A stretch of 64,000 nt of DNA from a virus (taxonomy: Duplodnaviria; Heunggongvirae; Uroviricota; Caudoviricetes), in IMG/VR virus record IMGVR_UViG_2919367315_000003, positions 94,134 through 158,133 of that record; one strand, written 5' to 3'. Shown here piece by piece: positions 2-3,294 of this stretch. The notes under the pieces were generated by a model. It was not told the DNA's origin and ran no database searches. It saw only the letters and a program-made list of their open reading frames with translations. The position numbers and the translations under genes are program-made. How positions within the stretch are numbered: the stretch's first letter is position 1; each line of letters starts with the position of its first letter.

Positions 2-553
2 GAAGGTATACTGGGTAGAAACAGTTCTGAAATAAGAACTTTAAAAGTGGGAAATATCGATAAGGTCAATAATAAAATAAAACTAACAAACGTAGACCGC
101 TATGAAACAACAGAAAGAGAAATCATTGTTAGTGATTTTTTAATTGATGCTCTTTTAGCAGCAGATCAAGAGGAAGTGTATAAATCTAATTTTGGTGAAG
201 GCAGCAAAAGAAAAGACACTTCCAAATTAAAAGACAGTGATTATATAATAAAGAGCACAAGAGGAGAAGAAGTTAAGCAGTCATTAATAACATTTGTTAT
301 TACTAAATTTGGTGAAAAGCTGAATAGACCAAGTTTATCTCCAATCGATATAAGAAATTCAGGTATGTTAGAAATGGCAAGAAAAGAATATCTCCGTGAG
401 AATAAAAAAACTTTAGATCGTTCAGATATTCATAAGATATGTAAACAATTTAATGTTGGTTTGCGTGATGGTGGCATAATCAACAGTACAATGTATACTC
501 AAGATTTCCTCAATGAAGAAACCATAAAAAGAGTTTACCCTGAAGTAGAATAA
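2..553 (+). CDS. hypothetical protein, 5'-truncated by window edge (frame open from nt 2)
   Basis: ORF track 47..553; same frame has no stop back to window start; followed by strong terminator. Confidence 0.4.
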   Translation, partial: EGILGRNSSEIRTLKVGNIDKVNNKIKLTNVDRYETTEREIIVSDFLIDALLAADQEEVYKSNFGEGSKRKDTSKLKDSDYIIKSTRGEEVKQSLITFVITKFGEKLNRPSLSPIDIRNSGMLEMARKEYLRENKKTLDRSDIHKICKQFNVGLRDGGIINSTMYTQDFLNEETIKRVYPEVE

Positions 554-577
554 GTTTTTCTTATTCTACTTTTTTTT
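545..577 (+). terminator. rho-independent terminator (GTAGAATAAG-tttttc-TTATTCTAC + T8)
   Basis: perfect 9-10 bp stem, 6-nt loop, run of 8 T directly after stop at 553. Confidence 0.7.
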
Positions 578-590
578 ATGGAAAATTGTG

Positions 591-619
591 TTGACATCAA
601 CGAAAACGCATGATATATT
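591..619 (+). promoter_or_regulatory. sigma-A type promoter TTGACA-17-TATATT (extended TGaTATATT)
   Basis: consensus -35, 17-nt spacer, TG-extended -10; 30-bp module repeated at 3115. Confidence 0.55.
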
Positions 620-666: not shown

Positions 667-1308
667 ATGGAAACGGCTAAATACATAATATTTTCAATGT
701 TGGATGGTATGGCAATTTTTATTTTTGGATTTGGTATGTATTCTATAAAGCTAAGAGACTACTGGGTTCAATTTATCGTTTCAAGTCTGTGTATTTCTGT
801 AGGTACCCTCTTGTATGTGGAATACGACCTTCCGACTAGAGTTGCACCGATTGCCAATTTATTATTATTGATAATATTTCTCGTGATTTTATTTAAACTA
901 TCTCCCCTTTCATCATTGAGGATATCGGGAATAAGTTTTTTAGTGCAGATGATTTTACAAACTTTAACTGCGCTTATACTTGCAAGTACACTTAATATTG
1001 ATTTTTTTGAAACAACAAAAGAATATGGAATACTGATTCAATTCTTGGGTGACACAGTAATGGTCATCATAAGTTTGATATTAAGGAAACGATCTATCTT
1101 CTTTACAACATTACCATATCAATATACATTAAAATTCAAAATTAACACCTCGAATATAATACTTTTTATTGTGTCTCTGCTCGGTATAGCTTTAATGACA
1201 AAGCCTACTTTCAACAATATGACTTCAAGTGTAGTTTTCTGGATAGCAATATTCGTATTATTGATTCTAATAGAAAGAAGAAAGGAAATTAAAAATGAAT
1301 ATGATTGA
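667..1308 (+). CDS. polytopic membrane protein (about 6 TM), AgrC-sensor-domain-like, no histidine kinase domain
   Basis: ORF track 610..1308; start moved to ATG 667 behind GAGGG RBS because 610 overlaps promoter; hydrophobic helices throughout; first gene of agr-like cassette. Confidence 0.5.
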   Translation: METAKYIIFSMLDGMAIFIFGFGMYSIKLRDYWVQFIVSSLCISVGTLLYVEYDLPTRVAPIANLLLLIIFLVILFKLSPLSSLRISGISFLVQMILQTLTALILASTLNIDFFETTKEYGILIQFLGDTVMVIISLILRKRSIFFTTLPYQYTLKFKINTSNIILFIVSLLGIALMTKPTFNNMTSSVVFWIAIFVLLILIERRKEIKNEYD

Positions 1309-1831
1309 TCAAATAGCCGATAAGTGGAGTTGTGCAGCTAAAAGTAAATATCCTGATGAATTACCGTCACAACAAATAGTGAGATATACATTAAAATTTA
1401 TAATCTCGAATACCATTCCCATATTTATAGTATTAATTGCATCGATGCTATTAGGCATTACTAAAGAAACAGTATTTGCATTAATAGGGTTTTCATCACT
1501 TAGAATGTTTTCAGGTGGTTTTCACTTTAAATCGGCAGATATGTGCATAGTTTTTTCATCGCTAGTAATAATTTTAATAGCATTGGGAGGCAATTATTTC
1601 GAGAATTACTCTTTTGCTATGTATCTAGCCAGTGTAATATTGGTAATGATATATGCACCAAGTAAGATAGAACAGCAAACAAGAGTGAAACCGGAAAAAT
1701 TTAAATGGTTTAAAATTATATCCTTAATAATAGTTTCGCTGATATATATAATAAATATTCCAGTAATGAATTTAGCTGTTTTAGTACAAAGTCTCCTCTT
1801 GATACGCTTGAGAGGAGGTGAAAAGTTATGA
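1295..1831 (+). CDS. agrB: AgrB-family accessory gene regulator protein B (AIP-processing membrane endopeptidase)
   Basis: 178 aa, multi-TM, conserved R-x-x-SGGxH motif (LRMFSGGFHFKS) typical of AgrB; ATGA overlap with downstream agrD-like ORF. Confidence 0.6.
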   Translation: MNMIDQIADKWSCAAKSKYPDELPSQQIVRYTLKFIISNTIPIFIVLIASMLLGITKETVFALIGFSSLRMFSGGFHFKSADMCIVFSSLVIILIALGGNYFENYSFAMYLASVILVMIYAPSKIEQQTRVKPEKFKWFKIISLIIVSLIYIINIPVMNLAVLVQSLLLIRLRGGEKL

Positions 1832-1950
1832 AATTGAACAAACTTATGCTGATTGTTGGTAGTTTTTGCTCTCTGTTGGCAGTAACAGTGGTAAGCACTG
1901 CTAGTTGGACATTGATCCATGGAGAAGCAGTGCCAGAAGAATTGAAATAA
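1828..1950 (+). CDS. agrD: AgrD-like autoinducing peptide precursor (40 aa: MKLNKLMLIVGSFCSLLAVTVVSTASWTLIHGEAVPEELK)
   Basis: not in ORF track (<60 aa); GGAGG RBS 1813-1817; hydrophobic N-terminal helix, short core, acidic C-terminal tail with E-x-V-P-x-E-L resembling S. aureus AgrD DEVEVPKELTQL; immediately after agrB. Confidence 0.5.
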   Translation: MKLNKLMLIVGSFCSLLAVTVVSTASWTLIHGEAVPEELK

Positions 1951-1953
1951 TAT

Positions 1954-1998
1954 ATTTGGGGTCCCGCTCTTTCTTCTGGGTGGGGCGAGACCCCAAAT
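1954..1998 (+). promoter_or_regulatory. stable stem-loop (10-bp stem ATTTGGGGTC/GACCCCAAAT, 25-nt loop), no U-tract; possible attenuator or processing site between agrD and LytTR gene
   Basis: perfect inverted repeat read directly from sequence. Confidence 0.4.
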
Positions 1999-2017
1999 GA
2001 ATTAAGAGGTGATAATA

Positions 2018-2410
2018 TTGAAGTCAACAGACACTATAAAAGTAGTAAAAAAAATAGGTGACAAAATAGATGAAGTAGCAATTATGTTACCAGTGTCAGA
2101 AGTTCAAGGATTTAGAACTGAAAAAAAGAGCGGAAAAACAGGACAAACACGGATTGTATACATAACAGATAATGGTGAGTTTATTGATGAAACAAGAACA
2201 GAACAGACAATGCGTTTATTTGAGAACATTGAAGGATTCGTAAGAGTTGGGAGAGGAAGTATGGCCGATGTGACTAAGATTGACGAAATCGATGAAAGGG
2301 TATATGAGATATATTTTGATAAGAGTAAAAAAAGCTTTGTGGAAATCGCAGCGGTACATTTGGCAACAGTAAAAAAAATGTTACAGAGACTAAGAAACAA
2401 TAAAAAATAA
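2018..2410 (+). CDS. standalone LytTR-domain DNA-binding protein (no receiver domain)
   Basis: ORF track 2009..2410; TTG 2018 behind GAGGTG RBS; C-terminal FVRVGRGSMADVTKIDEID matches LytTR core (cf. AgrA FFRCHNSFVVNRHNIESID). Confidence 0.55.
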   Translation: MKSTDTIKVVKKIGDKIDEVAIMLPVSEVQGFRTEKKSGKTGQTRIVYITDNGEFIDETRTEQTMRLFENIEGFVRVGRGSMADVTKIDEIDERVYEIYFDKSKKSFVEIAAVHLATVKKMLQRLRNNKK

Positions 2411-2430
2411 ATGTTATTTTTGGTTTACTA

Positions 2431-2459
2431 TTGCTTATACCTTTTGGCAGTAGTATAAT
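2431..2459 (+). promoter_or_regulatory. sigma-A promoter TTGCTT-17-TATAAT
   Basis: sequence inspection. Confidence 0.4.
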
Positions 2460-2534
2460 TTGAATAAACACGAACATAGGTTCCCTAAATAGCGATTCGA
2501 CAAAAAGTGACACACTATATGGACATTTTTCCAG

Positions 2535-2555
2535 TATATTGATTAAGTCAATATA
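2535..2555. promoter_or_regulatory. perfect palindrome TATATTGA-ttaag-TCAATATA (candidate dimeric repressor operator) between two promoters
   Basis: 8-bp arms (extendable to 10 with one mismatch), 5-bp spacer. Confidence 0.35.
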
Positions 2556-2575
2556 TTTAGACATGGTGTGTAAAG

Positions 2576-2606
2576 TTGTTGCCTAATTATAGTAATCTCG
2601 TATAAT
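2576..2606 (+). promoter_or_regulatory. sigma-A-like promoter (TTGTTG/TTGCCT ... TATAAT)
   Basis: -10 TATAAT 2601-2606; imperfect -35. Confidence 0.35.
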
Positions 2607-2641
2607 AAAAGTATAGAATTCGACAGCAAGGAGATAATGCT

Positions 2642-3016: not shown

Positions 3017-3114
3017 ATAACCTTTGCCGAGCGTATTGGTTCGGCTGATTACATACTCCACAGATAGAGATAGAAGTTGTAAGGATGAATTAAACAAATA
3101 AATATAATGAAGTG

Positions 3115-3143
3115 TTGACTTAACGAAAACATCGTGATATATT
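3115..3143 (+). promoter_or_regulatory. sigma-A promoter TTGACT-17-TATATT, paralogous copy of the 591 promoter module
   Basis: TTGAC(T)T..AACGAAAAC..TGATATATTTA shared with 591-621. Confidence 0.5.
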
Positions 3144-3217
3144 TAATTAGCAAGGTGATTGACCTCATAAAAGAATACTTTTATCAAGATAGACAGTTAC
3201 CAAAAGGCAATACATAA

Positions 3218-3294
3218 GGGTCTTTCGTATAAGTGGTTAATACACCAATCTCATAAATTGGCTGATGCCCGTTCAAGTCGGGTGAGACCCACCA
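3218..3294 (+). tRNA. tRNA with CAU anticodon (Met, or Ile2 if lysidinylated), 3' CCA encoded
   Basis: manual cloverleaf: acceptor GGGTCTT/GAGACCC 7 bp, D-arm GTAT/ATAC with AGTGGTTA loop, anticodon stem CCAAT/ATTGG with loop CTCATAA, 5-nt variable loop, T-arm GCCCG-TTCAAGT-CGGGT, discriminator A, CCA. Confidence 0.75.

Follow-up and report, generated by a model that had tools for sequence, protein, structure and literature searches.

To our knowledge, arbitrium is nearly the only known case of peptide communication among temperate phages; in this system, a linear hexapeptide is imported and bound by a cytoplasmic TPR receptor. The stretch of DNA analysed here (the window; 64,000 nucleotides, positions 94,134 to 158,133 of the IMG/VR virus record IMGVR_UViG_2919367315_000003, class Caudoviricetes) carries a four-gene cassette with the order sensor, agrB, agrD and regulator, whose agrD gene encodes a 40-amino-acid precursor of an autoinducing peptide (AIP). 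Our reading, which we hold with slightly better than even confidence, is that this gene is the genuine AgrD precursor of a large SPbeta-like Paenibacillus prophage, and that its product forms a Ser lactone, is perceived by a membrane sensor and feeds the lysogeny switch through a LytTR output. The four genes of the cassette are the following:

667..1308, + strand: 213-amino-acid membrane protein with seven transmembrane helices (7-TM), putative AIP receptor (homology to an agr-linked kinase sensor domain; AlphaFold2 (AF2) model).
1295..1831, + strand: AgrB-type membrane cysteine protease/cyclase, 178 amino acids (Pfam PF04647).
1828..1950, + strand: agrD, 40-amino-acid AIP precursor (open reading frame (ORF), homologue set, hidden Markov model (HMM) scores, synonymous-only changes).
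2018..2410, + strand: stand-alone LytTR DNA-binding protein, 130 amino acids from TTG 2018 or 133 amino acids from GTG 2009 (Pfam LytTR in orthologues).

Like the arbitrium system (AimR-AimP-AimX) of SPbeta-like Bacillus phages, the cassette is a phage peptide system situated in a lysogeny module near MrpR (PMC10516654). Its components, however, are unrelated to those of arbitrium, its peptide is probably cyclic and sensed at the membrane, and its role in lysis-lysogeny is suggested by position only. An AimR-like gene is absent from the 8 kb upstream of the cassette, and the three AimR-sized ORFs of the window encode a member of a family of unknown function, an AAA_24/terminase-like protein and a primase. 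Phage agr genes have been described for the C. difficile phage phiCDHM1 and the Brevibacillus phages Abouo, Davies and Emery (Hargreaves et al. 2014, PMC3901668), which share with the window the presence of agrB and agrD on a phage genome. Unlike the window cassette, phiCDHM1 has a full AgrC kinase, and the peptides of the Brevibacillus phages belong to a class with a Lys four residues from the cut, whereas the window peptide belongs to a Ser class. Neither the LytTR partner nor the homology to a kinase sensor nor the SPbeta-like context is described for these earlier phage agr genes. A statement in a review that SPbeta-like phages carry agr homologues was rejected, since the citations given for it do not support it.

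The canonical agrBDCA systems of S. aureus, Listeria and Clostridia and the window cassette have in common the H77/C84 pair of AgrB, the layout of AgrD, a polytopic membrane sensor and a LytTR output domain. In contrast to the canonical systems, the sensor of the cassette lacks the DHp and HATPase domains, the regulator lacks a receiver domain and the gene order is sensor-B-D-regulator. In Staphylococcus (pseud)intermedius, the AIP (RIPTSTGFF) is a Ser lactone, with Ser in place of the ring Cys at a distance of five residues from the C-terminus of the AIP (PMC3673130, PMC6437270). The window peptide resembles this AgrD in its proximity to AgrB, in the position of the Ser and in having a conserved Pro within an acidic tail; in core and leader, however, the two are unrelated in sequence. 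Moreover, the staphylococcal system is chromosomal, includes a full AgrC kinase together with AgrA, and its lactone is chemically proven, whereas the lactone proposed here is predicted from sequence. A receiver-less LytTR regulator that is co-transcribed with a membrane protein is also the arrangement of the LytTR regulatory systems (LRS) HdrRM and BrsRM of S. mutans, for which phosphorylation-independent control was proposed (PMC6193735). In the cassette, however, the partner is a 7-TM kinase-type sensor rather than an inhibitor of the HdrM/BrsM type, and the operon encodes a dedicated peptide signal and its maturase. A Ser-based AgrD is thus not new in kind, but an agr cassette that lacks both kinase and receiver and is embedded in phage lysogeny modules is largely undescribed; a literature search found no functional study of it.

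The product of agrD is MKLNKLMLIVGSFCSLLAVTVVSTASWTLIHGEAVPEELK. The gene lies directly 3' of agrB, a position that is kept in every homologous cassette, and is preceded by the Shine-Dalgarno sequence GGAGGTG 7 nt upstream of the start codon. The two genes are translationally linked: the ATG of agrD (1828-1830) overlaps the TGA (1829-1831) of the 178-amino-acid agrB ORF. This ATGA arrangement, which had been pointed out in a preceding sequence-only reading of the window, is real and was found again in some of the homologues, but is not universal. Identical copies of the AgrD peptide are present on at least 24 contigs, among them Paenibacillus chromosomes of 5.9-6.2 Mb, from which it follows that the window derives from a prophage. 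The loci encoding the identical peptide contain four nucleotide versions of agrD, which are 1-5 substitutions apart, and every one of these substitutions is synonymous; in the comparison of the window with loci L012 or L015, 3-4 of 6 core codons differ, again with synonymous changes only and no non-synonymous one. Thus, agrD is a genuine gene under purifying selection and not a chance ORF. Syntenic cassettes whose AgrB is 41-62% identical to that of the window encode variant AgrD peptides, namely ...STASWTLIHSEEVPSELK, ...STASWTLIHNEPVPNELK, ...STASWTLIHGEEVPNELK, ...NLASWTLVGTEPVPDELK and ...TPASWFLIYNPTAPKSLKK.

Membership in the AgrD family is supported by TIGR04223, the curated AgrD model of NCBI, which has a cutoff of 19 bits: seven of eight Ser-class relatives tested score above the cutoff (21-37 bits), including ones with an identity of 71-90%. 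A relative with 71% identity (P0002) carries the NCBI name 'cyclic lactone autoinducer peptide'. The Pfam AgrD model gave no match to the window peptide. The layout is tripartite, with the leader MKLNKLMLIVGSFCSLLAVTVV, a core containing SWTLI and the tail HGEAVPEELK, and all features open to testing mark the window peptide as a member of the AgrD family, save for its own sub-threshold HMM score, which is taken up below. The sequence-only reading had proposed an AgrD-like precursor with a hydrophobic leader, a short core and a charged tail, and this proposal is supported by the synonymous-only changes, the occurrence on at least 24 contigs, the AgrB neighbour and the relatives recognised by TIGR04223. 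With regard to a possible loss of the small ORF or of its VPxEL tail from homologous cassettes, the ORF is always present and the P-x-E-L motif is found in all 22 cassette peptides of the first set.

A further 10 loci, located on viral contigs, complemented this first set of 22 AgrD-like peptides with seven additional distinct ones. As the sole universally conserved feature of the tail, the Pro in P-x-E-L served as the anchor for the register. For the window peptide, the register reads S26-W-T-L-I30 / H-G-E-A-V-P36-E-E-L39, in which the slash marks the predicted cut, five residues ahead of the Pro, so that the Pro is the sixth and the Leu the ninth residue past the predicted AgrB cut. The corresponding part of S. 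aureus AgrD, YSTCDFIM/DEVEV-P-KEL, is likewise cut five residues before the Pro and places P38 and L41 in the same register. This cut position is consistent with published work, in which E34 and L41 of S. aureus AgrD were reported to be important (PMC5789755). The register divides the core and tail codons as follows:

1903..1917, + strand: codons Ser26-Trp-Thr-Leu-Ile30, predicted 5-residue macrocycle (Pro-anchored register, invariant Ser, synonymous-only core changes).
1918..1947, + strand: codons of HGEAVPEELK, predicted C-terminal recognition tail removed by AgrB (P-x-E-L conservation, Pro/Leu register).

Known AIPs have a ring over the last five residues, which is closed by a central Cys or, in some species, by Ser instead (PMC4916163, PMC3673130). 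At this Cys position, five residues from the predicted cut (-5), a Ser is present in 12/12 Ser-class peptides of the first set, which span the four core families SW[TF][LI][ILV], SAGLS, STYLV and SPFGL. Three further viral loci also have Ser at -5, and a viral contig contributes a fifth core family, SLYYF; Ser(-5) is the only core residue common to the five families. Since this Ser is fixed while the remaining core varies, it behaves as expected of a ring-closing nucleophile, which favours a lactone between Ser26 and Ile30. Other residues were considered for this function and ruled out: Thr28 is replaced by Phe in locus L017, Ser23 is not conserved among the variants, and the leader Cys C14 is absent from most of them. 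A conserved Cys was sought among the variants and none was found. On comparison across the family, the most likely product would be the 5-residue Ser lactone S-W-T-L-I, with or without a short tail.

These results sharpen the picture given by the sequence-only reading. That reading had left the choice between a Ser lactone, a Thr lactone and a linear peptide, of which the Ser lactone is now favoured by the -5 register, the Thr lactone falls to the Phe in L017 and a purely linear peptide has become less favoured. Its division into a core STASWTLIH and a tail GEAVPEELK holds apart from His31, which by the family register belongs to the tail that is removed. The sole Cys does lie in the leader, at position 14, but it is found 12 residues before Ser26 and 16 before the last predicted ring residue rather than 25 residues upstream. 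The missing kinase of the receptor, the missing receiver domain of the regulator and the place of the cassette within the prophage had escaped the sequence-only reading.

The same cassette family contains a sister class of AgrD-like peptides, whose core has neither Cys nor Ser. Instead, a Lys at -4 from the predicted cut is invariant in 10/10 sister-class peptides of the first set and in further viral loci, as in FKGAI/G, FKFGL/G, AKVTI/G and QKGIL/G. This pattern suggests, from the alignment, an AIP closed as a lactam by the Lys side chain; a literature search found no report of a Lys isopeptide lactam for AgrB/AgrD. The peptides of this class are located as follows:

L018:5521-5643, L020:4022-4150, L021:3967-4083, L022:4025-4144 and L019:5555-5677, also L028, L032, L033, L035, L037 and L053-L059: Lys(-4) peptides.

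The window AgrB matches Pfam PF04647 with 88.1 bits (cutoff 23; E=6e-25). H77 and C84, which are both required for the processing of AgrD by S. aureus AgrB (PMC5789755), are among the invariant residues in a 14-sequence alignment of cassette AgrB proteins, and judged by this pair the window AgrB is catalytically intact. With H77/C84 intact, the usual acyl-thioester intermediate is expected, which could be resolved to an ester by the hydroxyl group of a Ser. For the genome scan for cassettes, a 9-sequence AgrB alignment was used, as the 14-sequence one was too diverse. A sequence search of the PDB with AgrB returned nothing useful.

The 213-amino-acid membrane protein encoded upstream of agrB has no Pfam or NCBIfam match. 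An exhaustive profile search defined a family of 65 representatives with lengths of 121-229 amino acids, of which none is fused to a kinase. A profile built from 64 of these sequences aligned with a histidine kinase of Chengkuizengella with a probability of 99.7% (hhalign; E=1.5e-26, 203 columns), covering residues 1-206 of the kinase. The Chengkuizengella protein has 458 amino acids with an HATPase_c domain at 331-437, and its gene is located directly upstream of an agrB-agrD pair. AF2 modelling with the 64-sequence alignment gave seven helices with a predicted local distance difference test (pLDDT) score of 92.4; this alignment was used instead of eight close sequences alone, which resulted in an unusable model (pLDDT 45.6). 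The protein stops about 10 residues past TM7 and has no DHp or HATPase domain. By profile comparison, it is thus a kinase-type sensor domain without the kinase, and we regard it as an agr-linked sensor rather than AgrC proper. It has a conserved cytoplasmic loop at residues 139-160. Neither a sequence search of the PDB with the sensor family, which gave nothing useful, nor a Foldseek search of the PDB with the model, in which no match was better than E=0.6, added to this assignment. A function of the 7-TM protein as a leader protease of the MroQ/CAAX type was considered and rejected, based on the lack of a protease family match and of a conserved catalytic-type residue and on the end-to-end alignment with the kinase sensor; the family has two nearly invariant residues, and both are Gln. 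In the Brevibacillus phages Emery and Davies, agrB is preceded by a tandem of two paralogous genes for kinase-less sensors (L021:2047-2712, L022:2104-2763), which may allow the sensing of two peptides.

The regulator encoded downstream of agrD reaches 21.2 bits against Pfam LytTR, slightly below the cutoff of 22.6. Among its cassette orthologues, 9/10 match this model (best E=1e-7) and no other domain was detected; the LytTR proteins of the cassettes comprise 100-137 amino acids and are devoid of a receiver domain. The gene probably starts at TTG 2018, which is preceded by the Shine-Dalgarno sequence AAGAGGTGA, whereas GTG 2009 falls inside AAGAGGTGA. In loci with an identical agrD, the LytTR product is annotated with 130 amino acids. 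In related loci, an upstream ATG gives a 137-amino-acid protein; in the window, that ATG runs into a stop codon. A receiver-less LytTR gene is contained in 22/23 kinase-less cassettes, whereas the partner of the single kinase-fused sensor homologue is a response regulator instead. The joint absence of kinase and receiver domains suggests a direct coupling of sensor and regulator. As phosphotransfer is impossible with no kinase in the sensor and no receiver in the regulator, signalling has to be phosphorylation-independent, and the cassette may represent a phage communication system that works without phosphorylation.

The following control elements surround the genes of the cassette:

542..572, + strand: intrinsic terminator that ends the repressor gene and directly precedes the cassette promoter (13-bp stem and T-run).
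591..619, + strand: cassette promoter, TTGACA-17 nt-TGaTATATT with an extended -10 (11/12 consensus match).
1948..2004, + strand: stem-loop between agrD and the LytTR gene, without a T-tract (-29.5 kcal/mol, z=-4.3).
2411..2641, + strand: conserved regulatory region directly downstream of the LytTR gene (blocks kept across 9 loci).

The arms GAATAAG/CTTATTC of the repressor terminator are kept in 9 loci, and the -35 and extended -10 elements of the cassette promoter are invariant across 9 diverged loci, while the spacer is variable. A hairpin is found at the position between agrD and the LytTR gene in 6/6 diverged variants (including L012 and L014-L017), although its sequence is unrelated (z -2.6 to -5.6); it may act as an attenuator or RNA-stability element, thereby setting the ratio of peptide to regulator. 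The blocks of the 2411-2641 region are conserved although the proteins of the respective loci have diverged to about 45%. The region comprises two promoter-like sites, with a palindrome (TGCC-TTTT-GGCA) located in the first spacer, as well as a direct repeat (TTCGACA-N5-GTGACA) and, at 2471-2483, a Cheo/LexA-type CGAAC-N4-GTTC box, which is the sole one in the 64-kb window. It is probably an SOS-linked early switch and would be a candidate target of the LytTR protein. Further downstream, a tRNA-Met gene (3218-3294) is located behind a promoter (3112-3145) that shares 74% identity with the cassette promoter (588-621) over 34 nt. An operator common to these two promoters was considered and rejected, since the spacer is not conserved elsewhere and the motif is not repeated in the window.

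Upstream of the cassette, the window begins within a repressor gene:

47..553, + strand: MrpR/YopR-like master-repressor gene, 3' part, tyrosine-recombinase fold, cut by the window start (Pfam MrpR_C_cat, E=8e-9).

All syntenic loci encode full-length homologues of 324-325 amino acids with MrpR_N_CB and MrpR_C_cat domains, with a DndB/YopQ-like gene ahead, and genes for YorF-like, AAA_24 and 3D-domain proteins follow downstream of the cassette. SPbeta has MrpR as its master repressor, and both mrpR and yopQ belong to the core lysogeny genes (PMC10516654). The remainder of the window codes for a phage set for replication and nucleotide metabolism, comprising a DnaE-like polymerase, a helicase, a primase, a RecJ-like exonuclease and two ribonucleotide reductases. 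The DNA polymerase is about 55% identical to those of Bacillus siphoviruses of 140-170 kb. At the DNA level, neither the cassette nor 22 kb of the window showed a match to deposited phages; matches were seen at the protein level only, for AgrB to Brevibacillus phages and for the DNA polymerase to the large Bacillus siphoviruses. In all SPbeta-like loci (L004-L017), genes for a PemK/MazF-type toxin, a divergent HTH_3 protein and a Myb-like protein precede the DndB-MrpR pair and lie 5-7 kb ahead of the cassette; the toxin gene recalls the MazF link reported for arbitrium phages.

The same four-gene cassette adjoins serine recombinase, cI-like, Rha and ERF genes in a prophage of P. chitinolyticus, and integrase and XRE regulator genes in the cultured Brevibacillus phages Abouo, Davies and Emery. 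It is therefore found in the lysogeny modules of three phage types, the SPbeta-like one with MrpR being the third, and further copies are present in IMG/VR contigs. Two cassette copies occur in one genome of Paenibacillus flagellatus (L031 and L034), with the Ser-class cores STYLV and SPFGL. Both are located beside TetR-family genes and not beside obvious phage genes, and L031 additionally has a separate HPK10-type kinase adjacent to it.

The gene and the selection acting on it, the AgrB catalytic pair, the Ser register, the loss of kinase and receiver, the operon structure and the position in a lysogeny module are directly supported, and from these we infer the ring chemistry, the coupling of receptor and regulator, the LytTR target and the biological role. 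In the proposed mechanism, AgrB would use His77 and Cys84 to cut between Ile30 and His31, so that HGEAVPEELK is released. In the acyl-enzyme, Ile30 would be bound as a thioester, until the hydroxyl group of Ser26 resolves it to the lactone S-W-T-L-I, the oxygen analogue of a thiolactone. The leader would be removed next; an S-T-A/S site fits signal peptidase, and the mature signal may thus be tail-less. Sensing of the exported peptide probably falls to the co-transcribed 7-TM protein, and the co-transcribed LytTR protein would provide the output, most likely via a peptide-controlled sequestration at, or release from, the membrane by direct contact. Such a control of a LytTR regulator by its membrane partner has been proposed for the LRS (PMC6193735). 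The LytTR protein would then act on the adjacent switch region, so that the density of phages or lysogens could feed into lysis-lysogeny in an arbitrium-like manner. The location of the cassette between the master repressor and a promoter region with a LexA-like box makes such a density input plausible. A wider proposal is that, in SPbeta-like Paenibacillus prophages as well as in unrelated phages of Paenibacillus and Brevibacillus, the cassettes form a stripped-down, phosphorylation-independent, phage-owned agr circuit for quorum sensing, which replaces arbitrium and sets lysis or lysogeny with non-thiolactone peptides, including the Ser(-5) lactone and the Lys(-4) lactam; we put it forward only tentatively and regard it as possible but doubtful.

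The chemistry of the signal could differ from an unrearranged Ser lactone in two ways. AgrB might only trim the tail, and water might hydrolyse the acyl-enzyme, thereby releasing a linear peptide ending in ...ASWTLI. There is indeed no Cys available in the core, and the sister class with a core lacking both Cys and Ser implies that AgrB homologues handle substrates without a classical nucleophile. However, Ser(-5) is the only residue kept across five otherwise unlike core families, Lys(-4) is kept in 10/10 sister-class peptides, and conservation at a fixed position that is independent of the surrounding sequence fits a ring nucleophile and is not expected of a recognition residue, which makes a linear signal quite unlikely. 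Alternatively, the leader could be cut between Ala25 and Ser26, which would leave the Ser lactone with a free alpha-amine, and the lactone could rearrange by an O-to-N acyl shift to the head-to-tail cyclopeptide cyclo(SWTLI). Signal peptidase sites follow a -3,-1 rule, which S-T-A/S fits, and the Ala just before Ser is invariant throughout the SW family. In addition, Listeria and L. plantarum have AIPs that are pentapeptides without a tail (PMC4916163), and homodetic cyclopeptides formed via a cryptic thiolactone and an S-to-N shift are documented in Clostridia (PMC8251862). The other Ser-class families, however, have Phe, Tyr or Gly before the Ser; we consider this product unlikely. As it would still require the Ser-lactone intermediate, it would refine rather than contradict the Ser-lactone reading.

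The biological role could also differ from an input into the lysogeny decision. In a lysogenic conversion, the peptide would interfere with or add to the agr system of the host, and the 7-TM protein would serve in immunity, export or processing rather than as a receptor. P. polymyxa, the host, possesses an agr system of its own, in which the thiolactone AIP ICFGLF, unlike the signal predicted here, controls antibiotic production (PMC12180512); cross-inhibition between AIPs is well known (PMC5789755), and the cassette is also found outside obvious prophages. On the other hand, the alignment of the 7-TM protein with a histidine-kinase sensor domain extends from end to end, and a dedicated DNA-binding protein accompanies it in almost every case. 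Gln occupies both of its nearly invariant positions, so that no protease-type catalytic residue is kept, it has no Pfam protease match, and the cassette resides in the lysogeny-control region of three unrelated phage types. A conversion function thus seems rather improbable to us. The reading as a phage agr system with a Ser lactone, a membrane sensor and a LytTR output has several points against it as well. The window AgrD itself scores 16.3 bits with TIGR04223 (E=0.008) and remains under the 19-bit cutoff. The ring chemistry is a prediction from comparative sequence, and the conservation of Ser(-5) could serve receptor recognition instead of cyclisation. The sensor family shows a weak relationship to an HPK10/AgrC-type kinase (probability 52%) and no match to a third kinase. 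As a target of the LytTR protein, the 2411-2641 region is a candidate. The hallmark of the LRS is a pair of approximately 9-bp direct repeats, which are 11-13 bp apart and located 4-11 bp upstream of the -35 element of the operon and serve its autoregulation; ahead of the cassette -35, in contrast, a search for LytTR-type 9-12-9 direct repeats found none. They are missing there because the repressor terminator abuts the -35 element: in all 9 loci, the terminator with its T-run takes up the 40 bp that precede this element. Some cassettes are located in apparently non-phage chromosome beside TetR genes, and the role therefore need not be phage-specific. Finally, the effect on lysogeny could go either way.

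If the Ser-lactone reading is true, the cassette would represent a second, mechanistically different signalling system of phages, in which a probably cyclic signal is detected at the membrane. It would also be an example of a two-component system that was reduced to a direct sensor-regulator pair by the loss of both phosphotransfer domains, and the range of Ser-lactone AIPs, possibly also that of Lys-lactam AIPs, would reach beyond staphylococci and enterococci. The host P. polymyxa is a species used for biocontrol in agriculture, and its own agr system controls its antibiotic output; an AIP produced by a prophage could therefore affect the behaviour of such strains.

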